64,000 nt of DNA, from the NCBI GenBank assembly GCA_018971045.1, contig JAGWVF010000001.1, positions 75,480 through 139,479 of the forward strand. The letters are read 5' to 3'. Numbering within the stretch: position 1 is the stretch's first letter; each line of letters begins with the position of its first letter. A program made the translations under genes and the position numbers. Under the pieces are notes generated by a model, which saw only the letters and a program-made list of their open reading frames with translations, made no database searches and had not been told where the DNA came from. Source of the stretch: Patescibacteria group bacterium (GTDB taxonomy: Bacteria; Patescibacteriota; Minisyncoccia; Phycocordibacterales; Phycocordibacteraceae). Below are positions 42,875 through 64,000 of this stretch, piece after piece.

Positions 42875-42877
42875 CTC

Positions 42878-42952
42878 GGTGCGCCCAGCAGGTTACGATC
42901 CTGCGACCTTCTCCTTAAAAGGGAGCTGCTCTACCAGCTGAGCTATGGGCGC
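42878..42952 (-). tRNA. tRNA-Lys (anticodon UUU)
   Basis: Minus-strand GCGCCCATAGCTCAGCTGGTAGAGCAGCTCCCTTTTAAGGAGAAGGTCGCAGGATCGTAACCTGCTGGGCGCACC: perfect 7-bp acceptor stem, 4-bp D stem, 5-bp T stem, anticodon loop CTTTTAA. Confidence 0.8.
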
Positions 42953-46742: not shown

Positions 46743-47128
46743 GAGGTGCGCACTGCAAGAAGATCCTCATCGAGGAGCTTAAGAAGAAGCCCGTTGTTGA
46801 GGCGGCGTGCCTGAAAGCAGGTGTCGGCAGAACCGCCTTCTACGATTGGAAAAAGAAGGACCCGAAATTTGCAAAAGCCGTTGAGCTGGCACTTCAATTC
46901 GGCAAGGACTTTGTCTCGGACATCGCCGAAATGCAACTCCTGAATGCCATAAAGTCGGGAGACTTTCGAGCTCTCGCTCTGTGGCTTAAGACGCATAAAA
47001 AGGAATACGGAAACCGGATGGAAATCGAAGGCGCACTCACCCTCATCGAGGAACTATCACCTGAAAAGAAAGAGGTCGTAAAAAGATCGCTCGCTCTAGC
47101 AAACCTAACTCTCAACAACCATGAATAA
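46739..47128 (+). CDS. phage terminase small subunit (HTH type)
   Basis: CLKAGVGRTAFYDWKKKDPKFAKAVELA HTH signature common in TerS proteins; ATGA overlap upstream and 8-nt overlap with TerL. Confidence 0.5.
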   Translation: MRGAHCKKILIEELKKKPVVEAACLKAGVGRTAFYDWKKKDPKFAKAVELALQFGKDFVSDIAEMQLLNAIKSGDFRALALWLKTHKKEYGNRMEIEGALTLIEELSPEKKEVVKRSLALANLTLNNHE

Positions 47129-48729: not shown

Positions 48730-49449
48730 CTATTTGAGTAGACCAAAATCTTTTTGCACCAGAGCGAAATCCGCATCTACGCTCGTCTCGTCTTTCATCA
48801 GTTGCGCGGTCGTCTTGCCGCTAACCTGCCAGTCGATCGCGTCCGATCCCCAAGTATTGAGGTCGCTATCAAGCTGCGCCATGTCATCACGCCAGGTACC
48901 GAGCGCGTCGGGTTCCGTCTGATTGCTGCCTGAGTAGCAATCGGAGGCTGTGGTGTATGCCTTGACGATTGAGTCGTAGAAGGAGGGTTCGTATGTAGAC
49001 CATGTCTTGCGCCACGCTGAGAAGTTGCTGGCCGCAGAACCCGGCACGGTGAGCGCCTGAAGGCCCGTAGAGCTGTTTGGGTACTGAGACGTACCAAGAG
49101 CGTCTTTCCCGTCCTTGTATGCCTTTGCATAGGCAGCAGTGACCTTCGGGAAAGAAGCGAGTATCGCTTGGGTACAAGAACTCGGCGTAGGTGCCGCTTT
49201 ATCGGTTGCTGGAGCTGGCGCTGTCGTTATAGGCGTCTCCGTTACAGCTTGCGCCACTGGCTGCGACAATGATTCTGCCGTTGGAGAAATAAGCGGTCTG
49301 GTAAATGCGTATCCGAGAAACGCGACGATCATTGTGGCGATAAGAAGATCGCGAGATCGAGGAATCGATTTAAGCAGTTCAGGTTTGGTAAAGGAGAGGA
49401 TAAAGCCGATAACGGACGCTACAAGAAGTAGCGCAAAGAAAGTGCTCAT
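48730..49449 (-). CDS. membrane-anchored hypothetical protein
   Basis: Start moved to MSTFFALLLVASVIGFILSF (single N-terminal TM); Thr/Pro/Ala-rich linker then soluble domain. Confidence 0.45.
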   Translation of the reverse strand: MSTFFALLLVASVIGFILSFTKPELLKSIPRSRDLLIATMIVAFLGYAFTRPLISPTAESLSQPVAQAVTETPITTAPAPATDKAAPTPSSCTQAILASFPKVTAAYAKAYKDGKDALGTSQYPNSSTGLQALTVPGSAASNFSAWRKTWSTYEPSFYDSIVKAYTTASDCYSGSNQTEPDALGTWRDDMAQLDSDLNTWGSDAIDWQVSGKTTAQLMKDETSVDADFALVQKDFGLLK

Positions 49450-49610
49450 GGTTTGCTGGTCGCGATTTGTAATGCCCGGAGGAGAGACGCACTGAACCCG
49501 CCACCGGGTGGGTCTTGCGACCCGACAAGGATTTCTCCCTGCCACGCGACCAGCGTTCCCCGATGACGGGTTCAGTACGCTGGTCGCGATTTTCGGCCAT
49601 GCCGGGAGAA
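49450..49610 (-). promoter_or_regulatory. structured 5' leader with alternative helices (putative attenuator/riboregulator)
   Basis: Minus-strand leader carries AATCGCGACCAGCG ... CGCTGGTCGCG ... AATCGCGACCAGC (segment 2 can pair with 1 or 3; segment 3 ends ~6 nt before the ATG), plus CTGAACCCG/CGGGTTCAG and a duplicated ATCCTTGT. Confidence 0.3.
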
Positions 49611-49902
49611 TCACAAGGATCCTCAAGCCGGTTTAGGCCTCTTTATTCGGTTTACAAGAACATGATAGCTCATTCGGGACTATCGTTGTAGACCCTAGCT
49701 TAGTATTGGAGGCTTGCGAAGGTGGTAGCTTTGCGTCCTTATGTAGGGCTCGGAATTCTGGTTCCGCACCCCTTCTGTTCCTGGTGGATTTGTGTGTGGT
49801 GAATGTTGAAAGTGGCAAGGTCATGGAATTGCCTGTGCGGGGTACCTAATCAGCTACTCATTTCGATATAAATCTGGTAAACTACAGGTAAGTTGGATTT
49901 AC

Positions 49903-50103
49903 ATGTCAAATCGCAAACAAATACCCAAAGACGAGATTATTACCCTGCAAGAGGCGTGCGAGATTTTCAATAGTCATTTGAATACGCTTCATAACGGGGA
50001 CAACAAAAAGGATACTTTAAGCGGTTTGTTTTGGTATGAGACGTGTCCAGAAATATCGAAAAGTTCAGGTGCTAAATCTTTTACGCAAAAGAAAATGATA
50101 TGA
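49903..50103 (+). CDS. small hypothetical protein at 5' edge of the AT-rich gene cluster
   Basis: 66 aa; first ORF after the GC drop; no family recognised. Confidence 0.3.
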   Translation: MSNRKQIPKDEIITLQEACEIFNSHLNTLHNGDNKKDTLSGLFWYETCPEISKSSGAKSFTQKKMI

Positions 50104-51614
50104 ACTTCTTTACTTCAGCTCGTCGAAATAGGGAACCTGCGGCATCATTTGTTGTTGAATCAACTGGATCAGTATTTACCTACTCCCATTTAGATGCGTT
50201 ATCAGCTCAATTCGTCAACACTCTTGTCAAGCTTGGAGTAAGAAAAGGAGATAGGGTAATGGTATGTGCAGAAAAAAGCCTAGAAGCATTAGTAGTGTAT
50301 ATTGCTTGTTTGCGCGCAGGGTTTATTTTTGTACCAATTAATCCAGCATACACCAAAGCCGAATTAGAGTATTTTATTACAGATGCGCGCCCTGCGATAA
50401 TTATTGTTGATCCAGATAAGAAGAAAGACATCCATTCAATTCCACGAGCACTAAATATGCTTATTGAAACTCTTGGGGTGGATGGGAGAACAGGATCCTT
50501 CTTAGAGAAGGTAAGAGAAATGCCTGCCAAGTTCAACGATGTTGAATGTGATGATGATGATTTGGCAGCAATAGTCTATACGTCTGGAACAACCGGGAGG
50601 TCTAAGGGTGCAATGATTAGCCATAATAACCTGCGATCAAATGCGGAGGCACTTTGTCAAAGTTGGCGATTCTCAAATTCGGATGTGTTACTTCACGCAC
50701 TACCGATTTTCCATGTCCACGGACTTTTTGTTGCAACTAATGTAACACTTACAGCGGGCTCATCAATGATCTTTCTTCCCAGTTTTGAGGTTAATGAAGT
50801 CATCAGTCATTTGCCGCGTGCCACAGTTATGATGGGCGTGCCAACCTTCTACACTCTACTTCTGCAGGATGGACGGCTTACGCGGGATTTGGTCGAGCAT
50901 ACTAGATTATTTATTTCCGGTTCGGCCCCGTTATTGGTGGAAACACATAGAGAGTGGTTGGAGAGAACGGGGCATGAAATATTGGAGCGCTATGGCATGA
51001 CAGAGGCCGGCATGATAACTTCCAATCCTTATAATGGAGAACGTGTTCCTGGTGCAGTTGGATTTCCTCTGCCAGGCATAATTCTGCGCATAGTCGATCA
51101 GAACACCAAGGAACTTCTAGCTAATGGTCAAGTTGGCTCAATTGAAATCAAAGGGCCTAACGTTTTTAAGGGATATTGGCAAATGCCGGAAAAGACCAAG
51201 GATGAATTTCGAGAAGATGGTTTCTTTGTGACTGGTGATTTGGGGTTTATAGACGACAAAGAGTATGTTCATGTCATAGGTAGGCAGAAAGATTTAATCA
51301 TTACATGCGGACTTAATGTATATCCTAAAGAAATAGAGGAAAATCTTAACAAGATTCTCGGAATAACTGAAAGTGCTGTCATAGGCGTGCCGCATCATGA
51401 ATTTGGGGAAGGTGTTGTTGGGGTGGTAGTCAGTAAAAAGCACAACTTGTCAGAAGAGCAAATATTAGTTGAATTAAAGAAGAATCTGGCACCTTATAAA
51501 ATCCCACTAAAGATATTTCTGGTTGACGTACTCCCAAGAAATATTATGGGAAAGGTCCAGAAAAGCGCCTTGCGGGCATCGTACAGTAATTTATTTACGC
51601 GAAAATATGAATAG
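50100..51614 (+). CDS. matB: malonyl-CoA synthetase (MatB-type acyl-CoA synthetase)
   Basis: AMP-binding motifs YTSGTTGRSKGAM, ...ALPIFHVHGLFVATNVTL..., GPNVFKGYW, GKVQK; long stretches near-identical in pattern to rhizobial MatB as recalled. Confidence 0.8.
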   Translation: MNFFTSARRNREPAASFVVESTGSVFTYSHLDALSAQFVNTLVKLGVRKGDRVMVCAEKSLEALVVYIACLRAGFIFVPINPAYTKAELEYFITDARPAIIIVDPDKKKDIHSIPRALNMLIETLGVDGRTGSFLEKVREMPAKFNDVECDDDDLAAIVYTSGTTGRSKGAMISHNNLRSNAEALCQSWRFSNSDVLLHALPIFHVHGLFVATNVTLTAGSSMIFLPSFEVNEVISHLPRATVMMGVPTFYTLLLQDGRLTRDLVEHTRLFISGSAPLLVETHREWLERTGHEILERYGMTEAGMITSNPYNGERVPGAVGFPLPGIILRIVDQNTKELLANGQVGSIEIKGPNVFKGYWQMPEKTKDEFREDGFFVTGDLGFIDDKEYVHVIGRQKDLIITCGLNVYPKEIEENLNKILGITESAVIGVPHHEFGEGVVGVVVSKKHNLSEEQILVELKKNLAPYKIPLKIFLVDVLPRNIMGKVQKSALRASYSNLFTRKYE

Positions 51615-53055
51615 CAACAACGATAGAAACGAACGGAAGGAAATAACAAAACGTAGCGAAGATTATTCGCAATGGTATCTGGACGTCATCGCCGCGGCAG
51701 ATCTTGCAGAAAATGGTCCGGTACGCGGCACCATGATAATAAAGCCGTATGGCTATGCGATTTGGGAGCGCATACAGCGTATTCTTGATGAACATTTCAA
51801 GGAGCTAAACATAAAAAATGCCTATTTCCCTTTATTTATTCCAGAAAGGTTGCTCAAGCGTGAGACAGAGCATGTAGAAGGTTTTGCACCGGAGGTTGCT
51901 GTTGTGACTCATGCTGGTGGCAAGAAGCTTGAGGAACCACTGGTGGTGCGTCCAACGTCCGAGACAATCATGTACGAGACGTTTTCAAACTGGGTACAAT
52001 CATATCGCGATCTGCCACTTCTTATAAACCAGTGGGCAAATGTGGTGAGGTGGGAAATGCGTCCACGTCTCTTTTTGCGCACAACCGAATTTCTATGGCA
52101 AGAGGGGCATACGGTACACGAATCAATGAAGGAAGCAGATGCGTGGGCTCGACAAATGCTTAGTGTCTATCAGTATCTAGCAGAACAGGTGATGGCCATT
52201 CCGGTTATCCCAGGAATAAAATCGGAGTCCGAGAAATTTGCCGGAGCGTTCTGCACCTACACGATTGAGGCAATGATGCAGGACGGCAAAGCACTTCAAT
52301 TCGCAACGTCCCACAACTTAGGTACAAACTTCGCGAAAGTATTCAACGTGTCTTTTTTGGACCGAGATGGAAATCGTCAATACGGTTCGCAGACAAGCTG
52401 GGGATTATCTACGCGTACGATTGGTGGTCTCATTATGGCCCACAGCGACGACAAAGGGCTTGTCTTGCCCCCCTGGCTCGCCCCTATTCAGGTAGTTATT
52501 ATAACCATCGGACATGCCGACAGTACTGGTGTGGTCGAACAAAAAGCTAGAGAAATTGCTGAAGAGCTTAAAAAGGCGGGTATTCGAGTTGAAATTGATG
52601 CGCGGCAACTGCGTCCTGGAGAGAAGTTTTATGAATGGGAGAAGAAAGGGGTTCCAGTACGGATTGAGCTCGGCCCTAAGGATCTCGCAAACAATGAGGC
52701 GATTCTTGCTCGGCGAGATGGTGGTGAAAAAGTTAGCATCCCAGTTAACTTTCTAGCTAGAAAAATAAATTCCCTTCTGGCAGACATTCAAACGAATTTA
52801 TACAAAAAGGCTTCGCAAAACATGGTATCCAAAATCAAGAAAGTCGATACTTGGGACGAATTCTCTCGAGCCGTTGAGGCAGGCAACTTCGTTCTTGCTC
52901 ATTGGTGTGGTGACGCAGAGGTCGAGAAGCAAATTAAAGAGGAGACGGGTGCAACTATACGATGCATTCCGTTTGAACAAAAGGCTGAGGATGGTGAATG
53001 TGTGAAGAGTGGGAAACCATCCGTTACGCGTGTAATATTTGCCAAGGCGTATTAA
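51607..53055 (+). CDS. proS: prolyl-tRNA synthetase (archaeal/eukaryote-like class II type)
   Basis: Class II motifs and ProRS-specific region RPTSETIMYETFSNWVQSYRDLPLLINQWANVVRWEMRPRLFLRTTEFLWQEGHT; start at MNSNNDR overlapping the matB stop. Confidence 0.85.
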   Translation: MNSNNDRNERKEITKRSEDYSQWYLDVIAAADLAENGPVRGTMIIKPYGYAIWERIQRILDEHFKELNIKNAYFPLFIPERLLKRETEHVEGFAPEVAVVTHAGGKKLEEPLVVRPTSETIMYETFSNWVQSYRDLPLLINQWANVVRWEMRPRLFLRTTEFLWQEGHTVHESMKEADAWARQMLSVYQYLAEQVMAIPVIPGIKSESEKFAGAFCTYTIEAMMQDGKALQFATSHNLGTNFAKVFNVSFLDRDGNRQYGSQTSWGLSTRTIGGLIMAHSDDKGLVLPPWLAPIQVVIITIGHADSTGVVEQKAREIAEELKKAGIRVEIDARQLRPGEKFYEWEKKGVPVRIELGPKDLANNEAILARRDGGEKVSIPVNFLARKINSLLADIQTNLYKKASQNMVSKIKKVDTWDEFSRAVEAGNFVLAHWCGDAEVEKQIKEETGATIRCIPFEQKAEDGECVKSGKPSVTRVIFAKAY

Positions 53056-53069
53056 GTGTAGTAATTAAT

Positions 53070-53864
53070 ATGCTTGAAAATGTTTTGGAGCTAAAGAATT
53101 TGCCAATTCCGCAACCAGGTTTTGATGTTGAATTGGTCAGAAATTATCAAGGTGTGAAGATCAATAAGGAAGGTTCGTTCTTCCGAGAAGAATTAGTTGA
53201 TATTCGAACCCTTGGTGTGAAGGGGTTGAACTACTATAATTCCACCTTCAATCCACCTTACTATCAATCCATTCCTGGATCTATTTCTTCATTGAAAGTG
53301 CGTAAGACAGTAGCTGAGAAGCTAGCGGCAGTAAATGAGAAGTTAAAAACAATCGGCCTCGAAATTTTTGTTTTTGATGCTTTCCGGCCGCTTGCTGTTC
53401 AGAACTATTTTTATTATGAGTGGGTCCCACGATATTTGCGCTCGATATATCCAGATAAAGATGAATTGTGGATTCTCCAGGAGTCCAATGCCTATTGGGC
53501 TAAGGGGGCCAGAAACAAAGATGAGCTATTGGCGTCTGCTCCGCCACATTCGACTGGTGGAGCGGTGGATATGACGTTTTGTTTTAAGGAGACGGGACAT
53601 TTGCTTGAAATGGGATCCATTTTTGATGATATAACAGAAAAATCCCACACTATTTTCTTCGAAAAAGATTTGGATCTCAAGAGCTTTACGGCCACAGAAG
53701 CGATGAAGAATCGTCGATTACTTTATCACCTGATGACGACGGAAGGGTTCGCTTCTCACCCGAAAGAATGGTGGCACTTCAGTTATGGGGATCAAATGTG
53801 GGCATTAATTACTAACCAGGCTGAAGCATTATATGGTTATGCAGGCAATGACTTCCAAACATAA
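53070..53864 (+). CDS. VanX-family D-Ala-D-Ala dipeptidase (peptidase M15D)
   Basis: Zn-ligand motifs SAPPHSTGGAVDMTF (SxHxxGxAxD) and KEWWHFSYG (EWWH); start moved to MLENVLELK. Confidence 0.75.
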   Translation: MLENVLELKNLPIPQPGFDVELVRNYQGVKINKEGSFFREELVDIRTLGVKGLNYYNSTFNPPYYQSIPGSISSLKVRKTVAEKLAAVNEKLKTIGLEIFVFDAFRPLAVQNYFYYEWVPRYLRSIYPDKDELWILQESNAYWAKGARNKDELLASAPPHSTGGAVDMTFCFKETGHLLEMGSIFDDITEKSHTIFFEKDLDLKSFTATEAMKNRRLLYHLMTTEGFASHPKEWWHFSYGDQMWALITNQAEALYGYAGNDFQT

Positions 53865-54636
53865 ATTCTGGCAGATTACGCCCCGTTTCTCGCCAGACAC
53901 AAAAAGTCTGATGGATGTTTGCGTTCATATCGCTCGGGTTCCCACAGACGGCTTGCTGTTGGAGGATTGTCTTAAAGTTTTGGACAGAACAGAACGTGAG
54001 AGAGCGCAGTCTTTTCGATTTGTCGAGGACAGAAATGCCTATATTACCGCACACGCATTACTGCGTTTTGCAATGAGCCATCGTTCCCGAGTTCTTCCAG
54101 AAGATTGGATTTTCAGAACATCACCTTCAGGGAAGCCGGAGCAAATTAATCTGCCAGGGCAGATGTATTTCAATATATCCCATACGCGAGGAATGGTCTG
54201 TTGCGCGTTATCCTCCACTAGTGTAGGAGTCGACATAGAAAATATTGATGCGCTGAGTAATTTTGGAAACCTGGATCCCCTCTTCAACAAGGAGGAAATC
54301 AATGAGGTCAGTTGTTTACCGGAACGGGACAGGAATTTCCGGTTTATAATTTACTGGACTCTACGAGAATCTTTGCTCAAGGGCACGGGAGAGGGAATTG
54401 GCGGTATTTCAAGGGACTTCTCCTTTTTTGTTAGTGACAATAAGGAAATCTTCCTCAAGGAGGCACGGCACCCTTCTTTACTGAACGGGTGGAAATTTGC
54501 CACTTTTCTGGTTGATAACCATTACATTGTTTCGGTTTCTACGTGTAATCTTACTAATAAGACTCAGAATATTTATCCGAATTTTAGAGGTGAGGTCGAG
54601 CTGATTGGTGCGTCGCAATATATCAAATCTTTTTGA
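53848..54636 (+). CDS. Sfp-type 4'-phosphopantetheinyl transferase
   Basis: PPTase motifs FNISHTRG, GVDIENI, WTLRESLLKGTGEG. Confidence 0.8.
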   Translation: MTSKHKFWQITPRFSPDTKSLMDVCVHIARVPTDGLLLEDCLKVLDRTERERAQSFRFVEDRNAYITAHALLRFAMSHRSRVLPEDWIFRTSPSGKPEQINLPGQMYFNISHTRGMVCCALSSTSVGVDIENIDALSNFGNLDPLFNKEEINEVSCLPERDRNFRFIIYWTLRESLLKGTGEGIGGISRDFSFFVSDNKEIFLKEARHPSLLNGWKFATFLVDNHYIVSVSTCNLTNKTQNIYPNFRGEVELIGASQYIKSF

Positions 54637-54648
54637 ATTCATAGTCAT

Positions 54649-55491
54649 ATGAACTATTTATCTTCAGAAACATTCGGGGCGGGCGACCTAAACTCAATTG
54701 GATATTTATATCGCCTTGTAGACTTTAAGAACAGGATTGAACTCATTCCCGCCTGTACAGAAAACAATGAAAAATTTATTGCGACAATGACAGAATTGTG
54801 GGCCTTTCTAACGTCCATAGAGGATGATGATGTCATCATTGAATTGCAGGGCGATAAACGATTTCCGTTAGTTCAGCAATATCTGGCTAAAAAATGGCAC
54901 GAGTATATAAGTATCATTGAAACCGATGAGGCCGAGAGATTTCTCTCGAAGACAGATTCCAAAGAGGCTAATTCAATGCTAGCTGAGGAAGACTATATGG
55001 GCGTGAATTATGAATTATCGCTACTCAGCGAAAAATTAACAGGCCTTAGCGTAATCATGGTTGGCTGCGGCCCGTTTCCAGAGACACTAATGGAAGTTTA
55101 TAAAGACAATAAGGATATAAAGTATGCAATCGGAATTGAGGGGAGAAATGACGTATCGCAGCTTGCAAATAGGATTGTCACGAAGGTATTCCCAGGTGTC
55201 GAGAATGTCAAAGCAGTAGCATCGGATGCGGAATCATTTGATTATAGAGATGCTGATGTTATTTTTCTTGCTAATGGACTAATAAAGAAGGACTTAATTC
55301 TCCAAAGAATCTACGATACCGCAAAGGATGGCGTAAAAATTTTAGCCAGAAACCCAATCTTGATGGGCAGGTTGTTTTACGAGGATCTATACTCTTTGCC
55401 TTCCATCCAGTACTTTGTTATTTGCGGTTCGGTAAGGGCAAGTAAATTGAGTGAAACTATTTTGTTCAGGAAGCGTGATAAAATTATATGA
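54649..55491 (+). CDS. nicotianamine-synthase-like (CntL/NAS family) SAM-dependent 3-amino-3-carboxypropyl transferase
   Basis: VIMVGCGPFPETL (cf. NAS VAFVGSGPLPLTS), DADVIFLANGL, VKILARNPILMGRLFY align with conserved NAS blocks by eye. Confidence 0.5.
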   Translation: MNYLSSETFGAGDLNSIGYLYRLVDFKNRIELIPACTENNEKFIATMTELWAFLTSIEDDDVIIELQGDKRFPLVQQYLAKKWHEYISIIETDEAERFLSKTDSKEANSMLAEEDYMGVNYELSLLSEKLTGLSVIMVGCGPFPETLMEVYKDNKDIKYAIGIEGRNDVSQLANRIVTKVFPGVENVKAVASDAESFDYRDADVIFLANGLIKKDLILQRIYDTAKDGVKILARNPILMGRLFYEDLYSLPSIQYFVICGSVRASKLSETILFRKRDKII

Positions 55492-57362
55492 CTAACGCAT
55501 GCTCGCATTTCTTTAAATGTGCCTCAAAATGGCCTAACAAAACGGCACTGGTTTTTGATTGTCAAGAAATAAGCTATAAGGACTTAGCAGATCGTGCGAA
55601 TGTTCTCGCTCACAGGCTAAACATTCTTGGGGTTAAGAGCGGGACTCTTGTTGGGGTGTATCTTCCCAGATCAGTTGATCTAATAGCATCAATACTCGCC
55701 GTATTGAAGATTGGCGCTGGATACGTTCCTCTCGACGTTTCTCTTCCAGAGGGACGTATCAAATACATCCTATCTAATTCTGGAGTGAAAGTTGTTGTCA
55801 CAAGCAGGGAACCTGGTTCAAAAAATACAGCCCCCATTATTGAGGGGGTAGGGTTACTGTATGTAGATGATCTAATGGCCTCTCATTTCAATGAGACGGA
55901 GATAGCAGAGGGGAAGACTGCTTACGTGATGTATACCTCAGGGTCTACTGGTTTGCCAAAGGGGGTTCAAATGGGACATAGTGTGCTTATTAATTTAGTT
56001 GAGTGGCAAAGTAAGGTCACCAATATTTCCGATGGCATTACATTACAGTATGCGCCAGCAAGCTTCGATGTCTCTTTCCAAGAAATATTTTCCACCCTCT
56101 CATTTGGTGGGACTTTGATCTTGTGCAATGAAGACACTCATCGTGATCCAGAGAGGTTGTTGTACCTAATTGCATCTGAAAAGATTGAAAGGATTTTCCT
56201 GCCTTTCATTGCGCTTCAGCAGTTGGCAGAAATTGCGCAAATAGGACAGGTCCCCAGCAACTTGCGTGAGGTGATTACTGCAGGTGAGCAGCTACGAATC
56301 ACCCCAGCGATAAGGGCCTTCTTCAAAGCATCGCAGGATTGTAGGTTAATCAATCAGTACGGCCCAACAGAAACTCATGTAGTCACAGCCTACGAGCTTT
56401 TGGGAGACCCGGTGCGGTGGCCGCCCTTGCCTCCGATTGGGAAACCAATACAGAATGTTCAGGGATTTATATTCGACGAATTCAAACAGGAGGTACTAGC
56501 TGGTGAGATTGGTGAGTTGTATATTGGCGGAACCTGTTTGTCGGAGGGGTACATTAATAATCCATCTCTTACTGATGCCAGTTTTGTCCAACACCCTCTC
56601 TCGGGAGAGAGATTATATAAGACCGGGGATCTCGCACGACTTCTTGAAGACGGGAATCTTGAATTTGTGGGAAGAAAGGATAACCAGGTTAAGATACGGG
56701 GATATAGAATTGAACTGGGAGAAGTTGAGATAGTACTGGCCGAGCATCCAGCTATACGAGAGTGTGTTGTTGACGCAAGAAAAGATGTTTTTGACCGGAC
56801 TAAGCTAGTGGCGTATCTTGTAATTCGAGAAGAATATAAGATGCGTTTAACATCCACCCTATATGACGGTGCCGAATGGACTTCTTTTTTAAGAGAAAGA
56901 GTGCCTGATTATATGATTCCCTCAACGTTTATAGTGTTATCGTCCTTACCACTCACTACAACAGGGAAGGTCGACCGAAAATCTCTTCCAACCCCATCAA
57001 AACAAAGGCCGGAACTCGTGTCTACTTGGGTGGCGCCTGGAAATGAAATGGAAATGAAAATAGCCAAGACCTGGAGAAATGCACTTGAATTGAATGACGT
57101 CGGTGTAAATGACAATTTCTTCGAAATTGGCGGCAATTCTTTACTTGTCGCGTTTGTGCAGCAAGAACTCATGCAGGTGCTGTCAACAAAAATTTCGGTC
57201 GCTGATCTATTTCAATACCCGACTATCCGATCCCTTGCAGAAGAGATAGAAAACCGGCGGAATACCCCTTATACGCACAAACCGCTCTATGGTCACCCGA
57301 AAACAGGCAATCTTTCGCCCGCATCGAAGAGAATAAACGCAAGAAAACGTTATGAGAAGTGA
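55488..57362 (+). CDS. stand-alone NRPS loading didomain (adenylation + peptidyl carrier protein)
   Basis: A-domain cores (YTSGSTGLPKGV, FDVS, GELYIGG, YKTGDLAR, GRKDNQVKIRGYRIELGEVE, TGKVDRKSL) and PCP motif FFEIGGNSLL; no C or TE domain. Confidence 0.85.
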   Translation: MTNACSHFFKCASKWPNKTALVFDCQEISYKDLADRANVLAHRLNILGVKSGTLVGVYLPRSVDLIASILAVLKIGAGYVPLDVSLPEGRIKYILSNSGVKVVVTSREPGSKNTAPIIEGVGLLYVDDLMASHFNETEIAEGKTAYVMYTSGSTGLPKGVQMGHSVLINLVEWQSKVTNISDGITLQYAPASFDVSFQEIFSTLSFGGTLILCNEDTHRDPERLLYLIASEKIERIFLPFIALQQLAEIAQIGQVPSNLREVITAGEQLRITPAIRAFFKASQDCRLINQYGPTETHVVTAYELLGDPVRWPPLPPIGKPIQNVQGFIFDEFKQEVLAGEIGELYIGGTCLSEGYINNPSLTDASFVQHPLSGERLYKTGDLARLLEDGNLEFVGRKDNQVKIRGYRIELGEVEIVLAEHPAIRECVVDARKDVFDRTKLVAYLVIREEYKMRLTSTLYDGAEWTSFLRERVPDYMIPSTFIVLSSLPLTTTGKVDRKSLPTPSKQRPELVSTWVAPGNEMEMKIAKTWRNALELNDVGVNDNFFEIGGNSLLVAFVQQELMQVLSTKISVADLFQYPTIRSLAEEIENRRNTPYTHKPLYGHPKTGNLSPASKRINARKRYEK

Positions 57363-60300
57363 TACAAACAATCGAATAAAGGAAACTGACATTGCAATAA
57401 TAGGCATGTCTTGTCGTTTTCCGGGTGCTCAAAATGTAGAAGTATTTTGGGAAAATTTAAAAAATAGCAAGGAGTCCATTTCATTTTTCACTAATGACGA
57501 ATTGGAAAATGGGGACAAGGAGATAGTAAAAGATCCACACTTTGTTAAAGCTGGCTCCGTATTGGATGAAGTGAAATCTTTCGACGCTGGTTTCTTTGGT
57601 TTTTCTGAACAAGACGCAAAGATTTTAGATCCTCAGCACCGGAAGTTCCTTGAGTGTTCATGGGAAGCGTTGGAGGATGGGGGATACAACCCCGACGTCT
57701 TTAAAGGAAGCATCGGTGTTTTTGGCGGTTCAGGTATGAGTACGTATTTTTTGAATAACGTCCATCCGAACATCGGATACCATCCAAATCGGACGTTCCT
57801 TGAATCAATGGGGGATTTGCAGCTATTAACAGCAAACGACAGGGATTATCTTACTACACGTGCTGCATACAAACTTAATTTGCGCGGTCCGAGTATTAAC
57901 GTACAAACAGCCTGTTCCACTTCATTAGTCGCAGTTCATCTTGCATGCCAAAGTATTCTGAACGGAGAGTGTGATATGGCTCTTGCAGGGGCGGTAACAA
58001 TCTTGTGTCCGCAAAAAACCGGCTATTTATATCAGCAGGACATGATTCTTTCCCCTGATGGCCATTGTCGCCCATTTGATGCGAAGGCAAAAGGAACAGT
58101 TTTCGGTAGCGGTGTAGGGGTCATACTGCTCAAAAGATTTTCCGATGCAATCCATGATGGGGACGCTATTCATGCAGTCATTAAGGGAACGGCAGTAAAT
58201 AATGATGGGGCAGTTAAAGTGGGGTATTCTGCGCCAAGCGTAAATGGACAATCGGCAGTAATTGAAGAGGCTATGGCGGTTGCCGATGTTGAACCGACGA
58301 ATGTTACTTACATTGAGGCACACGGGACGGCAACACAGATTGGTGATCTTGTGGAAGTCACAGCGCTTAAACAGGCGTTTCAAACTGAAAAAAGAAATTT
58401 TTGTGCACTCGGTAGCGTAAAATCGAATGTTGGGCACCTTGCTTGGGCTTCAGGGATGGCGGGGCTTATAAAAGTTATTCTCGCGCTTAAACATAAAAAG
58501 ATTCCAGCTACTCTCAATTTCGAGAAGGCGAATTCTCAGATAGATCTTGAGAACTCCCCTTTCTATGTCAATGCCGACCTTGTTGACTGGGAGACAGACA
58601 GCACAAGAACCGCAGGAGTCAGCGCTTTTGGTCTTGGTGGCACAAACGCACACATAGTTTTAAGCGAGGTTTCGGGAGCAAAAACCTCTGATCTCAAAAA
58701 AGACGACAGTCATATTTTCACATTGAGTGCCAGAAACGAAGGGGATCTCAGAACGCTTGCTGAGCGATATGTACAATTCTTAAACAAAACAACAGAAGTG
58801 TCCTTAGTCGATATTTGCTATACGTCGAATATAGGTAGAAGGCACCTCGATAAGAGGTTGGGATTCGTAGTCTCATCGGTGTCTGAACTTCAAGAGAAGT
58901 TGCGGTGTTTCATTGATTGCGTTTCTATACAAAAATACGTTCAGTCACGACTACAAAGTAGTGCAGCAATACATATGAGCGAGAGGGCACAAGTATTGGT
59001 TCGTCTGGCACAACAGTATGAATCTGGTGTGAATGTTGATTGGGGGACTGTATATACCGGATGGGCGGGACAGAGAGTTCACATGCCAACCTACCCATTT
59101 CAACGAAATGAATACTGGATAGAATCTATTGCAAAACTCAGACCAGCACAGAGGAATGAACAGATGGACTTGGCGGGTAACCTGTATGATATGCAGTATG
59201 AAAAACTGCCGCTATACGGAAGCGCCTCACGATATCTACCAAGTGTTCAACAGCTAAGCAGGGAATTGAATAAGAGATTTAAGGAGATAGCCGTGTCGTC
59301 TGGAATGAAGGGCTACACTAAAGAGTTGAATTTGCTGGAGAAAATCAGTTACCAAATGATTATTAACGCTTTTGTTCAACTCGGCTGTAAGTTTGATGTA
59401 AAGAACATCACAACAGAAGAGTTCGTGCGGCGATTTAATGTAGTTCCTCAATACAAGAAACTCATAGATAGATTTTTTGAGATTCTTGAGGAAGAGGGGG
59501 TTGCGAGCCGGGATGATTTTCACTGGAAGTTGCTCAAAAAGCCAAAAATTGCGGACGTTTTATTAACAGGGCAGAAGCATAGTTTATGTGAATTTGATTT
59601 TCTAAATCGTTGTGGTTCTAATCTCGCAGATGTTCTGCGTGGAGTAAAAAGTCCATTGGATTTGCTGTTTCCAAATGGAGACACTTCTCTTCTAAAAAAG
59701 CTGTATAGTGAATCACCCACCCTGAAAGCAATGAATATGCTTGTCGCCGAAGCAGTTTCATTGCTGGAACAGAGTACTCCGAAAAAAATGGGTTTAAGGA
59801 TCTTAGAGATAGGCTCTGGGACTGGTAGTGCCACCGCATCTGTTTTGTCGAAACTCTCATCCAGTAAGACCGACTACACATTCACCGACTTATCAAACAG
59901 CTTCATATCGGAAGCGAAAAATAATTTTGTAGATTATTCTTGCATATCATATGCGCAGCTTGATATAGAAAAAACCCCAAGTACCCAAGGTTTTTCTGAG
60001 GAGAAGTATGATGTAATTATTGCTGCAAATGTTTTACACGCGACTCAAGATTTGAGGGGGGCCATTTCTAATGTCAATAAATTATTGGCTCCTGGCGGAA
60101 TATTGATCCTTCTTGAAGGAACGGCACCTGTACGTTGGGTCGATCTCACCTTTGGTTTAACAGATGGGTGGTGGCATTTTACTGATTATGACCTAAGATC
60201 TCGCTATCCACTTTTACCGCCCAAAGAATGGGAAAGGGAATTGCTAAATCATGGCTTTGCTGAGGTAGAAACTCTGACGTCAGAGGAAATTGGTTCCTCA

Positions 60301-63300
60301 ATTAAAATTGATGGAGGCTTGCCGCAAGCAGTCATTCTTGCCAAGAAAAATTCTACAGTCTATCAGTCCACCCATCAAACCTGGGTTATTTTTGCGGACA
60401 GAAGCGGCACGAGCGACATTTTGATTAAACGGCTTACAGAGCGCGGCGATAACTGCATTGTAGTTCAAAGGGGAGATTTCTTCAGAGAAGAAGTTGCTAA
60501 TCAGAAATACACAATCAATCTTTTTAGACCGGAAGATTTTGAGGATTTGTTTGAGCATATACAGCAGCCTATTCATAATGTTCTTTATTTGTGGTCTTTG
60601 GATGAAATATCTGACCTGATTTCTAATCTTGAGCTTCTAAAGCGTCAATATCTGCAGGATTGTGGAGGGTTACTTAATACAGTGAAATCGATACTAAATA
60701 AGTTACCGACACCGCCAGCTCTCTTCGTGATAACGCAGGGAGCCCAGTGCCTGGATGCCAGTTCCGGCCTAGGCGGACTACTACAATCATCTGTCTGGGG
60801 CATGCATAGAGTTATTACAGTCGAACACCCTGAACTTTGTTGCAAAATTATTGATATTGAATCAACCAAACAAGTCACTGATCTCGTAGACGAGTTGTTT
60901 GCTAGAGACAAAGAACATCAGGTGATATTAAAGTCTGACTCTCGATATGTATCGCGAATAACCCGCGCGAGTGTTAATTTAACATCCTCAGGTACCCAAC
61001 CTCTCTTCAAAGAGGATGCGGTCTATATAATTACAGGTGGTTTAGGGGGCCTTGGTATAAAAGTTGCCGAGTGGATGGCGGGTATCGGCGCTAGACATAT
61101 CGCGCTTGTCGGACGACATGAGCCGACAGACGATGTTAAAGAAAAAATAAATCTTTTGATTAAAAAAGGTATAGATATACACGTTGCAAAATGTGATGTA
61201 TCCAATTACGAGTCCCTAAAAAGCTTATTTTTCAACCTGAAGCAGATAGGGCCTGTAAAAGGTATTATTCATGCGGCGGGTGTTATCGACGACGGAATTT
61301 TGCTACAGCAAGATTTTGAACGTTTGCTCAAGCCTGCTTATGCTAAAGTATTTGGTTCTTGGAATTTGCATATTCTTTCTCAGGATGAATCAATAAATCT
61401 TGATTTTTTCATCCTGTTCTCTTCAGTTGTTAGTACGATTGGCAATGTCGGGCAATCAAATCATGCGTCAGCAAACAGTTTCATGAACAACTTGGCGCTA
61501 TATCGTAAATATCAAGGGCTACCGGCAACCGTTATTCAATGGGGTGCGTGGGCCGACATCGGTACATTGGCAAAATATCCCGATGTTGTAGAGAAACTCA
61601 ACACTATTGGCTTTGGGCTAATACAGCCAGCCGAAGGTGTCAAAGTACTTGAGTTCATTTTACGTAAAGGTATTACAGCAGCAATCTTTGCTCCTATAAA
61701 TTGGGAGCGATTCCTCAAATTCAATAAATCAGAAGAAACCCATCTTTTTGCATCACTAGTGTCATCGTCCCAACGGAAGCCAGAGGAATTGTTTGTGGAA
61801 AATTTTGTATCAAGGCTTGCGTTGCTAACGGGGGCAGAGCAGCTTGCACTCATTGAAAGAAAGGTCGCGGAGAATGTTAGTCGAATTCTCGGCCTCCAGC
61901 AGGAGAGTGGCTTTGAGGATAAAGATTTCTTTGATTATGGGATGGATTCCCTGACTTCAATTCAGTTGAGAAATAATTTGCAATCAGATTTTAAATGTTC
62001 TTTGCATCCGACGCTTGCATACAAGTACCCGACAGTACGAAAGTTGTCGGAATATATAGTCAGTGTTGTTAGGCTAGATAGTCGCAGCGGTATTATTTCA
62101 ACAAATCAAAAAGAATTCACGTCTGTTTCTGGTACGAGAGAAATTTCAATGCAACAGAGAAGATGGATACGACTTGCTGCAAAAGATTATGGGCGCCTCC
62201 TTGTCCCCATCTTGTTCCATGCAGAATTGAACAAGAAAGCCTTCCTTTCGGCGCTTGAGCAGGTGGTAAATAGACACGAGGTGCTTAAGTACAGGTTCTT
62301 AAATGATCAGGCTTTTGTTGTCGATGCCGGAACCTTTCTGCTAAATGACCCCGAGTTGTTTGTCGACGCAAGTAACGAGACTGATCAAGCCCTAGTGATT
62401 AAGCAACAGGCCGATAATCTACGATTCTCTCCCCCAGATCCGCGGGACAGACCCACGTGGATGATTCGGTGCATAAGACTCAATAAAGATAAGTTCCTTG
62501 TGCTCCTACATATCCAACACCTCGAATTCGATGGGGCTTCAATATCAATCTTTGTGGACGATTTAAGAATGTTTTATTCGGATTTTGTAAATGGTATTGA
62601 CGCAACATACTTACCCGCTGTTCAATACGCAGACTATGTCGAATGGCAGAAACACTATCTAAATTCAGATATTTCTGAGGATCGAGAATTCTTCAAAAAG
62701 TTATTTTCTGATACCCTCTCCTCTACGATTTTGCCAAACCATTCTGGTCGTAGTTCAACTGAAAGTTACCCATCAGCTTGTTATACGCCATCGCAAATCA
62801 AGGGTCTTTGGAGAAAGCTTCAGGCGGTCGGGAAGAAAATGAAAACATCACCTTTCGCAATTCTTTGTTCAACGTACGCTCAACTGGTTGGAGAAATTGT
62901 AAATAATGACCATGTCGTCATTGGAACGATTGTAAGTAGTAGGCCATCTTGTGAATTCGAAAGGACCATAGGTCCTTTCGTTCAGCCTTTCCCAATGAAA
63001 ATATCCCTCAATGATCCTTTGCGGGATATGATTTCTACGGTACATACCTTAGTCACGGAGATTAATGAAAGAAGTGGGTATCCAGTTGCGGATATGATCA
63101 ACCATATTCCGGCTTTTAAAGAAATGGAAATCGACACTTATTTCACAGATTCGTTTATTATGCTTAATAATTATTCTCGTGAAGCAGATACTCAACCAAG
63201 AGTGGAGGTGTTTGAGTCACTCGGACCAATTTTGGAAGATGGACTGTCAGGCATAAGTCCTAAAAAGATCAACGAAATTGCCGGACTATTCCTAATAGTT

Positions 63301-63432
63301 GATTATTATGAAGGAGAAATGAGGTTCAATTTTTGGTACCATTCACATCGCTTCTTTAAGAAGCAGGTTCAAGAGTGGGCTGATAGATATTCAGATCTTC
63401 TCAAACAAAATATACAGTCACTAGAAGGCTAA
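57352..63432 (+). CDS. hybrid PKS-NRPS megasynthase, AT-less: KS - flanking subdomain - C-methyltransferase - KR (Tyr->His) - ACP - condensation domain
   Basis: KS triad (TACSTSLVAVH, EAHGTATQIGD, KSNVGHL); no GHSxG acyltransferase motif anywhere; cMT LEIGSGTGSAT; KR Rossmann TGGLGGLG but GQSNHASAN instead of NYAAAN; ACP DYGMDSLTS; C-domain His motif HIQHLEFDG; 2026 aa. Confidence 0.9.
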   Translation: MRSDTNNRIKETDIAIIGMSCRFPGAQNVEVFWENLKNSKESISFFTNDELENGDKEIVKDPHFVKAGSVLDEVKSFDAGFFGFSEQDAKILDPQHRKFLECSWEALEDGGYNPDVFKGSIGVFGGSGMSTYFLNNVHPNIGYHPNRTFLESMGDLQLLTANDRDYLTTRAAYKLNLRGPSINVQTACSTSLVAVHLACQSILNGECDMALAGAVTILCPQKTGYLYQQDMILSPDGHCRPFDAKAKGTVFGSGVGVILLKRFSDAIHDGDAIHAVIKGTAVNNDGAVKVGYSAPSVNGQSAVIEEAMAVADVEPTNVTYIEAHGTATQIGDLVEVTALKQAFQTEKRNFCALGSVKSNVGHLAWASGMAGLIKVILALKHKKIPATLNFEKANSQIDLENSPFYVNADLVDWETDSTRTAGVSAFGLGGTNAHIVLSEVSGAKTSDLKKDDSHIFTLSARNEGDLRTLAERYVQFLNKTTEVSLVDICYTSNIGRRHLDKRLGFVVSSVSELQEKLRCFIDCVSIQKYVQSRLQSSAAIHMSERAQVLVRLAQQYESGVNVDWGTVYTGWAGQRVHMPTYPFQRNEYWIESIAKLRPAQRNEQMDLAGNLYDMQYEKLPLYGSASRYLPSVQQLSRELNKRFKEIAVSSGMKGYTKELNLLEKISYQMIINAFVQLGCKFDVKNITTEEFVRRFNVVPQYKKLIDRFFEILEEEGVASRDDFHWKLLKKPKIADVLLTGQKHSLCEFDFLNRCGSNLADVLRGVKSPLDLLFPNGDTSLLKKLYSESPTLKAMNMLVAEAVSLLEQSTPKKMGLRILEIGSGTGSATASVLSKLSSSKTDYTFTDLSNSFISEAKNNFVDYSCISYAQLDIEKTPSTQGFSEEKYDVIIAANVLHATQDLRGAISNVNKLLAPGGILILLEGTAPVRWVDLTFGLTDGWWHFTDYDLRSRYPLLPPKEWERELLNHGFAEVETLTSEEIGSSIKIDGGLPQAVILAKKNSTVYQSTHQTWVIFADRSGTSDILIKRLTERGDNCIVVQRGDFFREEVANQKYTINLFRPEDFEDLFEHIQQPIHNVLYLWSLDEISDLISNLELLKRQYLQDCGGLLNTVKSILNKLPTPPALFVITQGAQCLDASSGLGGLLQSSVWGMHRVITVEHPELCCKIIDIESTKQVTDLVDELFARDKEHQVILKSDSRYVSRITRASVNLTSSGTQPLFKEDAVYIITGGLGGLGIKVAEWMAGIGARHIALVGRHEPTDDVKEKINLLIKKGIDIHVAKCDVSNYESLKSLFFNLKQIGPVKGIIHAAGVIDDGILLQQDFERLLKPAYAKVFGSWNLHILSQDESINLDFFILFSSVVSTIGNVGQSNHASANSFMNNLALYRKYQGLPATVIQWGAWADIGTLAKYPDVVEKLNTIGFGLIQPAEGVKVLEFILRKGITAAIFAPINWERFLKFNKSEETHLFASLVSSSQRKPEELFVENFVSRLALLTGAEQLALIERKVAENVSRILGLQQESGFEDKDFFDYGMDSLTSIQLRNNLQSDFKCSLHPTLAYKYPTVRKLSEYIVSVVRLDSRSGIISTNQKEFTSVSGTREISMQQRRWIRLAAKDYGRLLVPILFHAELNKKAFLSALEQVVNRHEVLKYRFLNDQAFVVDAGTFLLNDPELFVDASNETDQALVIKQQADNLRFSPPDPRDRPTWMIRCIRLNKDKFLVLLHIQHLEFDGASISIFVDDLRMFYSDFVNGIDATYLPAVQYADYVEWQKHYLNSDISEDREFFKKLFSDTLSSTILPNHSGRSSTESYPSACYTPSQIKGLWRKLQAVGKKMKTSPFAILCSTYAQLVGEIVNNDHVVIGTIVSSRPSCEFERTIGPFVQPFPMKISLNDPLRDMISTVHTLVTEINERSGYPVADMINHIPAFKEMEIDTYFTDSFIMLNNYSREADTQPRVEVFESLGPILEDGLSGISPKKINEIAGLFLIVDYYEGEMRFNFWYHSHRFFKKQVQEWADRYSDLLKQNIQSLEG

Positions 63433-63557
63433 CTTCGTTCGTGATATGAAGAACTAAATAAATCACCGAATTTAATAGCAAAGGTTTATCTGCTCCAAAT
63501 GGAACTGAAGCAAAGCAGCATAGACCTCCAAGAAGGAGGTGCCAAATGGTACATATG

Positions 63558-64000
63558 TCAGCGAATAGGTGTTTTACGAGCAGTTTGTAAATTTTCCTTT
63601 AAAGTATTTGCCAACTCGTCGCTTTGGATAATCAGAGCAAATTTTTCTGCGGGCGCGATAAGAGCAATCTTGTTTTTAAGAATCCTCACCTCAGCGGATT
63701 GATTATTTGCTGCCACATTTTTGGCTCCAAGTATTTCCTGGCGCGCCGCTTCTATACCCTCGTCACCATCAAAAAACTGCACCCGTGGCTTTTGCTTCGC
63801 CCCGCTCTGCATCGCTCTCAGTTTAGGCAGCAGGGACTTAGTTGTGGCAGTCAACTCTTTATATTTATCAGCAGACTCCTGCGCAATCTTCACCAGTCTC
63901 TCTGGAGATGCAGCAGTGTACAGCCTGACATTCTGCACATCTGAAGTGCTCACAAATCCGCGCTTCGCTAGAAAACTGAGCACGACATACACGGTACTCC
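63558..64000 (-). CDS. hypothetical protein, N-terminus beyond window end (possible regulator)
   Basis: Open frame continues past position 64000 (the M in the ORF track is a GTG); no transposase or enzyme motifs. Confidence 0.35.
   Translation of the reverse strand, partial: STVYVVLSFLAKRGFVSTSDVQNVRLYTAASPERLVKIAQESADKYKELTATTKSLLPKLRAMQSGAKQKPRVQFFDGDEGIEAARQEILGAKNVAANNQSAEVRILKNKIALIAPAEKFALIIQSDELANTLKENLQTARKTPIR

Follow-up and report, generated by a model that had tools for sequence, protein, structure and literature searches.

Aminoacyl-tRNA synthetase (aaRS) self-resistance genes are known from the pathways of mupirocin (IleRS), borrelidin (ThrRS), and albomycin (SerRS), and prolyl-tRNA synthetase (ProRS) is a validated drug target through halofuginone. 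Among the assembly lines closest to the one described here, the detoxin/rimosamide-like (DRL) enzyme PipC of the pseudotetraivprolide pathway uses proline on an acyltransferase (AT)-less module consisting of a ketosynthase (KS), a ketoreductase (KR), and an acyl carrier protein (ACP), with FabD as the trans-AT (PMC12828459). Dolaproine, a unit of the dolastatin-10-type compound aetokthonostatin, is made by AesA/AesB from proline and malonate with ketoreduction and C-methylation (PMC10556625), and JamQ of the jamaicamide pathway, an enzyme resembling condensation (C) domains, is the proposed catalyst that cyclizes an amino acid-ketide to a pyrrolinone (as cited in PMC13643306). AzeJ-type clusters for azetidine-2-carboxylate (AZE) occur in bacteria of the candidate phyla radiation (CPR) (PMC11794875). 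Here, we describe a hybrid nonribosomal peptide synthetase (NRPS)-polyketide synthase (PKS) gene cluster at positions 50100 to 63432 of a 64,000-nucleotide stretch (the window) of contig JAGWVF010000001.1, assembly GCA_018971045.1. Our preferred reading, advanced tentatively, is that the cluster is a mobile, self-contained operon for a small proline-derived aminoacyl-ketide and that it carries its own ProRS, probably for self-protection.

Gene content and domain organization

The open reading frame (ORF) listing of the window has seven + strand genes between 50100 and 63432 that overlap or abut one another, a packing consistent with a single operon, and the NCBI annotation contains the same seven proteins (MBU6214352 to MBU6214358) under the source label "Patescibacteria group bacterium," in agreement with the small-genome type of host proposed in the preliminary description. 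That description had counted nine co-oriented genes; there are seven, or eight if a 66-amino-acid (aa) ORF of island composition (49903 to 50103, + strand) is added. Its stop codon shares an ATGA with the start of MatB, but the ORF lacks a Pfam match and a counterpart at any related locus, and its membership in the cluster is doubtful. On the contig, proteins MBU6214350 to MBU6214358 carry the locus tags KGM48_00690 to KGM48_00730. Assembly-line natural-product pathways have rarely been tied convincingly to CPR/Patescibacteria, and here one lies on a 150-kb contig with CPR-type neighbors.

The first gene (50100 to 51614, + strand) encodes a 504-aa MatB-type malonyl-CoA synthetase (PRK07514, 742.8 bits; cutoff, 558). 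It is followed by a 482-aa ProRS (MBU6214353.1; 51607 to 53055, + strand) of the type I, archaeal/eukaryote-like form, which has three Pfam domains, with the class II core, the anticodon-binding domain, and ProRS-C_1 all present, and which scores above the equivalog cutoff (TIGR00408, 588 bits; cutoff, 437). The third gene (53070 to 53864, + strand; a longer ORF begins at 52998) encodes a 264-aa VanX-type M15 metallodipeptidase (Peptidase_M15, 88 bits; cutoff, 27), the best-conserved accessory protein of the cluster family. Aligned to VanX (1R44), it retains the FRP motif, whose Arg we take to be the counterpart of VanX Arg71, as well as the HSTGGAVD zinc motif and EWWH, and it scores below equivalog level against both NF033115 VanX (54 versus 320 bits) and PRK10178 (66 versus 176 bits). 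Next come a 267-aa Sfp/HetI-type 4'-phosphopantetheinyl transferase (PPTase; 53833 to 54636, + strand; ACPS/AASDHPPT_N) and a putative 280-aa S-adenosylmethionine (SAM) enzyme of the NAS/CntL fold (KGM48_00720; 54649 to 55491, + strand), which carries the motif VGCGPFPET and is assigned at profile and fold level only. The sixth gene (55488 to 57362, + strand) encodes a free-standing, 624-aa NRPS didomain of an adenylation (A) domain and a thiolation (T) domain, the latter a peptidyl carrier protein (PCP), with AMP-binding and PP-binding matches, the PCP serine in GGNSL, and 388.6 bits against TIGR01733 (cutoff, 317).

The seventh gene (57352 to 63432, + strand; MBU6214358.1) encodes a 2026-aa single-module PKS with a terminal C domain, whose domains were delimited by Pfam, all on the + strand. 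The KS (57385 to 58524) has its Cys (TACSTS), His (HGTAT), and second His (NVGH) intact and is followed by a KS-AT linker or AT-docking-type subdomain (58531 to 58917; KAsynt_C_assoc, CurL-like_PKS_C, and RhiE-like_linker). A C-methyltransferase (cMT; 59263 to 60267) with an HTH_51 lid and a class I methyltransferase fold carries the motif LEIGSGTG. The KR (60367 to 61557), comprising structural and catalytic subdomains, has the NADPH motif TGGLGGLG, a B-type IDD, and a His (His1371) at the catalytic Tyr position (GQSNHASAN); the ACP (61861 to 62058) has its serine in GMDSL, and the C domain (62149 to 63420) has HIQHLEFDG, with the second His and the Asp kept. No Acyl_transf_1 match was found by Pfam in the 2026-aa protein, which, with its KS triad and ACP Ser and no integrated AT, is an AT-less type I module. 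The KS Cys-His-His, cMT SAM motif, KR NADPH motif, ACP serine, and C-domain His/Asp are conserved in eight members of the cluster family. Every domain named in the preliminary description was thus recovered by Pfam or curated-profile searches, and its view of the region as a hybrid NRPS/AT-less PKS cluster with hallmarks of horizontal acquisition is borne out by these domains and by a composition foreign to the left flank.

Composition of the island

GC content is 43% in the cluster, compared with 55% on its left side. In 1-kb steps, it ranges from 0.41 to 0.47 across positions 50001 to 64000 and from 0.46 to 0.62 (mean, 0.55) across positions 1 to 49900, and GC at third codon positions (GC3) is 0.36 to 0.46 in the seven island genes versus 0.67 to 0.72 in PolA and the T2SSE ATPase. 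The shift is abrupt, falling within ~300 bp around 49.7 to 49.9 kb, and tetranucleotide usage changes over between 48 and 52 kb. The AT-rich break that had been claimed is therefore sharp in GC, GC3, and tetranucleotides at the left edge, and uniform composition is ruled out. The earlier wording of a ~40% GC block flanked by ~60% GC DNA holds for the break on the left; the flank is nearer 55% than 60%, and flanking was verified on the left side only, because GC is still 42% at the window end and the compositional contrast rests on the left flank. Directly 3' of the PKS and convergent with it (63433 to 64000, − strand) lies a gene fragment for the C terminus of a winged-helix protein with a weak likeness to TrmB (E = 0.008), also at 42% GC, so the AT-rich DNA reaches past the conserved cluster. 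The compositional difference from the left flank is real, and the cluster is probably horizontally acquired and mobile. The only other copy that we found, a 1.5-kb Logan contig from an independent run, is 99.9% identical.

Predicted assembly of a proline-derived ketide

The A-domain code, read through the FDxS, ITAGE, NxYGPTE, and GKxDR anchors, is D-V-Q-F-I-A-Q-V-V-K, and the positions read with the same motif anchors are identical in six family members. Canonical proline codes are DVQ[LF]IAHVVK, typically with His at position 322, and the replacement of this His by Gln is the sole departure here. The core motifs, the PCP Ser, Asp235, Val236, Gln239, and Lys517 are all in place, as expected of a Pro-type A-T protein. 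Val236 and Gln239 are the hallmark of Pro-activating A domains, and the codes of Pro and AZE domains can be identical (PMC12283262). The code thus indicates that proline or a close analogue would be the substrate of the A-T protein. The A-T gene is upstream of the PKS gene and overlaps its start at every locus, and related KSs (55 to 57% identity) sit after C-A-T modules in the fused proteins P0075 and P0115; together, these arrangements favor a collinear reading in which Pro-S-PCP is passed to the KS. We have high confidence that the island carries a proline-type aminoacyl-ketide pathway and low confidence in any specific final structure.

In all family members, a His occupies the position of the catalytic Tyr of EryKR1, and the KR had been regarded as of doubtful activity. 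The motif NH[AS]AAN is, however, also present in KRs of related modules that contain dehydratase (DH) and enoylreductase (ER) domains (P0022, P0043, and P0052). Since DH and ER domains need a working KR and share a protein with the same His motif, we rejected the inference of an inactive KR and consider the window KR to be probably active; the beta-keto group would be retained if it were not. Among the 120 best PKS homologues, 38 KR motifs were recovered by pattern, 29 of them with His for the catalytic Tyr. This looks like a sizeable His-type KR clade, for the chemistry of which we found no description in the literature. The nearest solved relatives of the terminal C domain are ordinary NRPS C domains from the bacitracin, teixobactin, microcystin, and tyrocidine synthetases, a likeness that points to amide formation.

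The fifth gene is the least familiar component. Its product has no Pfam match and only 14 homologues among 5.8 billion proteins. A profile built from 13 NAS-like homologues matches CntL (E = 4e-6) and MtNAS (E = 0.006 to 0.02), and an AlphaFold (AF2) model with a predicted local distance difference test (pLDDT) value of 87 matches MtNAS/CntL over its full length (template modeling [TM] score, 0.7 to 0.8; E ~1e-14), whereas generic methyltransferases match over the Rossmann half only (~1e-8). The protein combines a helical N-domain and a Rossmann fold with a NAS-type SAM motif. Its invariant Glu91 lines up with the CntL Glu that we take to be the catalytic Glu84. It scores below curated thresholds (CntL NF033601, 16.8 versus 350 bits), and a precomputed PF03059 match was seen in one homologue only (P0131). 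We therefore regard the fifth gene product as a putative 3-amino-3-carboxypropyl (aminobutyrate) transferase, a member of the family at fold level only. An AzeJ/VioH-type AZE synthase was considered and rejected, as no sequence, profile, or fold similarity was found and the 280-aa protein contains neither PFNxxGN nor RxxYYxxC, both of which are AzeJ motifs.

These components can be arranged into a pathway. Going by its domains, the PPTase would prime the PCP and the ACP, and the A-T protein, judging from its code, would adenylate and tether L-proline or a near analogue, while MatB would convert malonate to malonyl-CoA. Malonylation of the ACP is the weakest step of the scheme and might be accomplished by an AT encoded outside the window, by self-loading, or with the assistance of MatB. 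The KS would then condense Pro-S-PCP with malonyl-ACP. Domain order and intact motifs suggest that the cMT would methylate C-2 and the His-type KR would reduce C-3, giving a dolaproine/detoxinine-like intermediate, 3-hydroxy-2-methyl-3-(pyrrolidin-2-yl)propanoyl-S-ACP, which the terminal C domain would off-load by amide formation. The corresponding free acid would be C8H15NO3 (173.1 Da), and an aminobutyrate adduct would be 101 Da heavier. Speculatively, the acceptor might be an amine supplied by the NAS/CntL-like enzyme through transfer of the SAM aminobutyrate group, maybe onto an amino acid freed by the M15 peptidase; an equally speculative option is the pyrrolidine nitrogen of the chain itself, which would yield a bicyclic lactam.

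A syntenic family with and without an AT domain

The preliminary description put the cluster forward as a candidate novel system. It is not a one-off: the core order ProRS-M15-(PPTase)-NAS-like-A-T-PKS-C recurs in ~11 metagenomic lineages, which make up a small family with conserved synteny and apparent mobility. Contigs of the AT-less relatives keep the gene order MatB-ProRS-M15-PPTase-NAS-like-A-T-PKS-C. Full-length homologues of the PKS were found at 55 to 61% identity, and across the family, identity falls to 39% for the PKS and 35 to 37% for the NAS-like protein. Three lineages with the core ProRS-M15-(PPTase)-NAS-like genes are more distant. That of contigs L009, L010, L016, and L018 has the core genes followed by the A-T gene and a PKS-C gene for a 2350-aa, cis-AT protein. 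Contig L020 likewise has A-T and PKS-C genes, its PKS being cis-AT and 39% identical overall. The third, L019, is only 4 kb long and breaks off behind the NAS-like gene (product 37% identical to that of the window).

Relative to the cis-AT relatives L009 and L020, the window PKS lacks ~310 aa of AT and keeps remnants of the linkers, so the AT-less form appears to have arisen from a cis-AT ancestor by deletion. All AT-less loci that reach upstream of ProRS contain MatB (the window, L001, L002, L005, L006, L007, L008, and L011), whereas it was not seen on the cis-AT contigs L009 and L020. This pattern suggests a connection between losing the AT and gaining MatB, and MatB could provide the substrate or even load the ACP. 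On L002, L003, and L007/L013, a convergent gene of 405 to 407 aa directly follows the PKS gene and encodes the motifs GQGSH, GNSLG, and AFHS (L002, 13981 to 15204; L003, 8665 to 9888; L007, 17843 to 19060; all − strand). This degenerate AT-like gene is subthreshold in Pfam on L002 and L007 (25.6 versus 32.7 bits) and is a candidate discrete AT of some AT-less loci only: unrelated genes take the same post-PKS position in the window, L001, and L005, the window gene being the TrmB-like fragment rather than an AT. The family thus offers two natural experiments, one with cis-AT and AT-less versions of a single module, MatB being seen only beside the latter, and one in which an enzyme of the NAS/CntL fold was recruited into thiotemplate chemistry.

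Metagenome-assembled genomes (MAGs) that contain family members are labeled Moraniibacteriota, WS2/Lithacetigena, "Gammaproteobacteria," and "bacterium," a spread that could reflect transfer or binning error. The ProRSs of L006 (JGI metagenome 3300009537) and L015 (a "Candidatus Lithacetigena glycinireducens" bin) are 98.8% identical, and the two appear to be effectively one cluster lineage under different taxonomic labels. The most AT-rich member is L004 (GCA_036681025.1, JAXDEL010562786.1; 28% GC; PKS GC3, 0.17), from an assembly of >560,000 contigs.

Mobility and the left junction

Several relatives lie beside genes typical of mobile DNA or beside tRNA genes. On L007, a Moraniibacteriota MAG contig, and on L008, a large serine recombinase is directly upstream of MatB and beside tRNA-Asn (2166 to 4400 and 2 to 2191, respectively), and on L001 (12998 to 13225) and L009 (20058 to 20132), tRNA genes (tRNA-Ala/His or tRNA-Asn) are directly downstream of the PKS gene. 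A zeta toxin adjoins the cluster on L005, and a LexA/S24 repressor-like gene and an MmeI-type methylase adjoin it on L011. In L001, L007, and L020, as in the window, the PKS gene exceeds its flanks in AT content; its GC3 of 0.39 in the window is the family maximum (others, 0.17 to 0.37). This fits amelioration of the window copy in a GC-rich host and argues against a chimeric contig. Within the window, we found no integrase and no att-like sites or long repeats around the island.

At the junction of host DNA and island lies a full-length LOOT small RNA (sRNA; Rfam RF03000; 49510 to 49639, − strand; 70.2 bits; gathering score, 46.4), a possible marker of the insertion site. Because the sRNA overlaps the TTG start of a mechanically called ORF (48730 to 49626), the first ~60 codons of that ORF are probably not coding. 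Directly left of the island is a phage-like block (45417 to 48668, + strand; GC, 50 to 54%) encoding a fusion of ParB and an N6/N4 DNA methylase (phrog_498), TerS, and TerL (phrog_38, E = 4e-73). No portal or capsid genes follow it, and for this reason, we read the block as a truncated prophage or satellite remnant; relatives at least 90% identical to the window TerL occur on other contigs of up to 66 kb. A phage-borne cluster was considered and rejected: there is no IMG/VR relative, and the ParB-methylase/TerS/TerL block differs in composition and stops before the cluster. Upstream of the operon, no leader RNA (T-box or riboswitch) was found, only the LOOT sRNA on the other strand. Scans for promoters and terminators gave no more than expected from shuffled sequence and were set aside.

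Farther to the left, three imperfect 19-nucleotide (nt) direct repeats (GCGCTCTCTCGCTCCGGCT-like; 42777 to 42876), spaced 48 and 33 nt apart, adjoin tRNA-Lys(ttt) (42878 to 42952, − strand), the sole tRNA gene of the window. Other GC dips (0.46 to 0.49) occur at 3001 to 4000, 26001 to 29000, and 38001 to 39000, the remaining host region being at 0.52 to 0.62; these may be other small foreign segments.

Possible role of the cluster-linked ProRS

The genes for ProRS, M15, and the NAS-like enzyme are conserved core members of the family, and the presence of MatB upstream of ProRS in AT-less members means that ProRS and M15 sit between biosynthetic genes. The ProRS gene has island composition (GC3, 0.45). 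ProRS genes of the cluster family are closest to Patescibacteria ProRS genes, and all 10 cluster-linked ProRSs (known to be so or inferred from a shared contig) fall in one 19-member neighbor-joining clade, in which no protein comes from a contig of >30 kb. A single change, W261S, is specific to this clade and lies next to the QTSWG strand (YG-S-QTSWG): residue 261 is Ser in 17 of the 19 members, compared with Trp in 87% of other Patescibacteria-type ProRSs. It presumably lies three residues before the motif 3 SWG strand (human Tyr1269).

The position of the ProRS gene, its island composition, and the Pro-loading A domain are most simply read together: the product would mimic proline or prolyl-adenylate, and the ProRS would protect against it. 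By analogy with aaRS resistance genes, a cotransferred ProRS might keep tRNA-Pro charging going despite a proline-mimicking product. Our confidence that the ProRS confers immunity and that the product targets ProRS is moderate to low, and no example of a ProRS in a natural-product cluster was found in the literature. A bolder version seems unlikely to hold in full. In it, ultrasmall CPR bacteria would carry and exchange a compact mobile pathway whose products, proline-mimic antimetabolites of a new class, act on ProRS, and the pathway would bring along its own protective ProRS; the product would join a dolaproine-like ketide to a SAM-derived aminobutyrate unit, MatB would replace the lost AT in AT-less forms, and episymbionts would use the compound against hosts or competitors. 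An obligate ProRS beside a proline-loading NRPS-PKS is a lead for target-guided mining.

Competing explanations

A number of observations weigh against a self-protecting operon. The island ProRS is 68 to 79% identical to Patescibacteria ProRSs encoded on contigs of 0.2 to 0.7 Mb and is thus not visibly divergent from ordinary ones. There is no resistance signature common to all cluster-linked ProRSs, and those of L009 and L019 keep Trp261. The conserved core of the family has no exporter, and the M15 subfamily is not cluster specific: 79 clusters (50% identity) form a continuum at E ≤ 1e-30. Together with the missing signature, these two points limit our confidence in ProRS immunity. On the biosynthetic side, no trans-AT was found in the 64-kb window when the AT-like protein of L002 and the cis-AT domain of L009 served as tblastn queries, and the substrate of the NAS-like enzyme and the acceptor of the C domain are guesses. 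Only the left flank of the island is visible in the window.

The same features of ProRS and M15 are what would be expected under the main rival, which we consider unlikely: that both are housekeeping neighbors, either swept along with the pathway or already in place where it inserted, and have no role in product or resistance. The real pathway would then consist of PPTase, NAS-like enzyme, A-T, and PKS-C, plus MatB in the AT-less forms. A ProRS typical of Patescibacteria and without a common resistance substitution, its place as first gene, on the cluster edge, in the cis-AT loci L009 and L020, and an M15 subfamily that extends well beyond the cluster all agree with it, as does the stronger conservation of ProRS and M15 than of the biosynthetic genes. 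Yet the gene order is kept across lineages whose PKSs are only 39 to 55% identical, MatB is found upstream of ProRS in all AT-less forms, and the cluster-linked ProRSs form a clade of their own. Moreover, the whole block, with the ProRS gene in it, has the composition of the island, whereas the high-GC host must have been able to charge tRNA-Pro already. ProRS would have a function in a quite improbable azetidine route, in which the NAS-like enzyme cyclizes SAM to AZE, as plant NAS enzymes do for the terminal unit, the A-T protein loads AZE in place of Pro, and the ProRS discriminates against AZE and so limits its misincorporation. AZE toxicity does work via ProRS. The NAS family performs azetidine ring closure, and AzeJ-type synthases lie beside aaRS genes in CPR bacteria (PMC11794875); Pro-type A domains accept AZE, the codes can coincide, and the reported AZE code DMQLVSQQVK has Gln322, as here (PMC12283262). 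Against this route stand the lack of AzeJ/VioH similarity and AzeJ motifs noted above and the chemistry of the solved relatives CntL and MtNAS, which transfer aminobutyrate to an external amine and form no azetidine. In addition, a sensitive host ProRS would go on mischarging even beside a discriminating one, which makes a second copy a weak defense when the analogue is misincorporated.

In both sequence and fold, the nearest solved relatives are CntL and MtNAS, and they invite an opine/nicotianamine-like metallophore reading, to which we give a low probability: the NAS/CntL-like enzyme would aminobutyrylate an amino acid, e.g., D-Ala freed by the M15 peptidase, the C domain would join this to the proline-ketide to form a polydentate metal chelator, and ProRS would be incidental. 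The predicted product would hold amine, hydroxyl, and carboxylate ligands, and a supplier of D-amino acids beside a CntL-like gene recalls the CntK-CntL pairing of staphylopine, in which CntL uses D-His. However, no locus has a CntM-type opine dehydrogenase, an importer, or an exporter, identity to CntL is only ~17%, and the conserved ProRS is left unexplained. It is very improbable that the island is an assembly or binning artifact in which an AT-rich block from another, low-GC organism was joined to high-GC DNA. The abruptness of the GC change (~300 bp), the single visible flank, the lack of att-like repeats, and the confinement of all relatives to short, low-GC contigs, some binned to unrelated phyla, could be taken that way. 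Nevertheless, no family member exceeds the window copy in GC or GC3, in keeping with a stay in a GC-rich genome, the contrast between AT-rich cluster and flank is repeated in L001, L007, and L020, the NCBI gene annotation runs continuously across the junction on a 150,636-bp contig, and the junction adjoins an sRNA gene and a phage remnant, both typical insertion contexts. The least probable of the readings reverses the logic of the line, with the PKS starting from an acyl or decarboxylated malonyl group, the C domain N-acylating Pro-S-PCP, and the A-T protein serving as the acceptor module. Although the C domain does resemble elongation C domains that use carrier-bound acceptors, and C domains often accept Pro, the cluster has neither a starter-loading domain nor a release domain for a Pro-S-PCP product, the A-T gene is upstream of the PKS gene and overlaps it at every locus, and the related KSs in P0075 and P0115 follow C-A-T modules.

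Comparison with known systems

In line with the preliminary description, the literature search turned up no characterized cluster that has the gene set, nor anything on such a gene set in CPR bacteria or on NAS-like enzymes with NRPS/PKS genes. We found no description of four features: a minimal stand-alone format that ends in a C domain, the obligatory company of ProRS, M15, and the NAS-like enzyme, the association of MatB with loss of the AT, and the CPR setting. The assembly logic itself had also been called unusual, a claim that does not survive comparison: the precedents of PipC and dolaproine show that the core logic is of a known kind. PipC and the DRL systems, like the window cluster, combine Pro-PCP with one malonate on an AT-less KS-(AT-docking)-KR-ACP module and make a Pro-derived beta-hydroxy acid (PMC12828459). 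PipC differs in being fused to an upstream NRPS module, in lacking a cMT, and in ending in a thioesterase (TE), and the DRL clusters have PipDFG and a hydroxylase and no ProRS, M15, NAS-like, or MatB gene. The window cluster is thus not a DRL cluster, since it ends in a C domain rather than a TE and no locus of the family has the PipD/F/G trio. The AT function of PipC comes from outside its cluster, from the housekeeping enzyme FabD; to our knowledge, Patescibacteria are not expected to have FabD.

The carbon skeleton predicted here is the same as that laid down in the dolaproine steps, from proline, malonate, ketoreduction, and C-methylation (PMC10556625), and the nearest homologues of the PKS outside the family are cyanobacterial or Chloroflexi-type modules. 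AesA/AesB, however, belong to long assembly lines with cis-ATs and stand-alone methyltransferases, and the hydroxyl group is O-methylated, whereas the unit in the window is the whole polyketide part and would be released by a C domain. With JamQ, the cluster shares the union of an amino acid with one ketide and a condensation-type domain proposed to close or release the chain via nitrogen. JamQ, whose own role is no more than proposed, is a free-standing protein that works where a long lipopeptide line ends, whereas the window C domain is fused and resembles ordinary C domains, and cyclization is one of two options for it. The NAS-like enzyme has the two-domain fold of CntL and MtNAS, a SAM motif of the GxGPxPxT type like theirs, and, where CntL has its Glu, a conserved Glu, but identity is only ~16 to 18%, and the enzyme is encoded in an NRPS-PKS operon without a CntM or CntK partner.

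The cluster is a compact lead with an unusual built-in hint at its target, though not categorically new, and two kinds of system bear on that hint. AzeJ clusters likewise place a SAM-aminocarboxypropyl enzyme beside an aaRS gene, sometimes with an NRPS, on mobile-looking islands of CPR genomes, and their chemistry also yields a proline mimic; they differ in using a class I methyltransferase-like SAM lyase, in having a class I aaRS and B12-dependent radical SAM genes, and in having no PKS. The likeness to aaRS self-resistance genes is that a complete, second-copy-type aaRS lies within a biosynthetic operon and moves along with it, and the difference is that the window ProRS is not visibly divergent, its resistance role here being putative.

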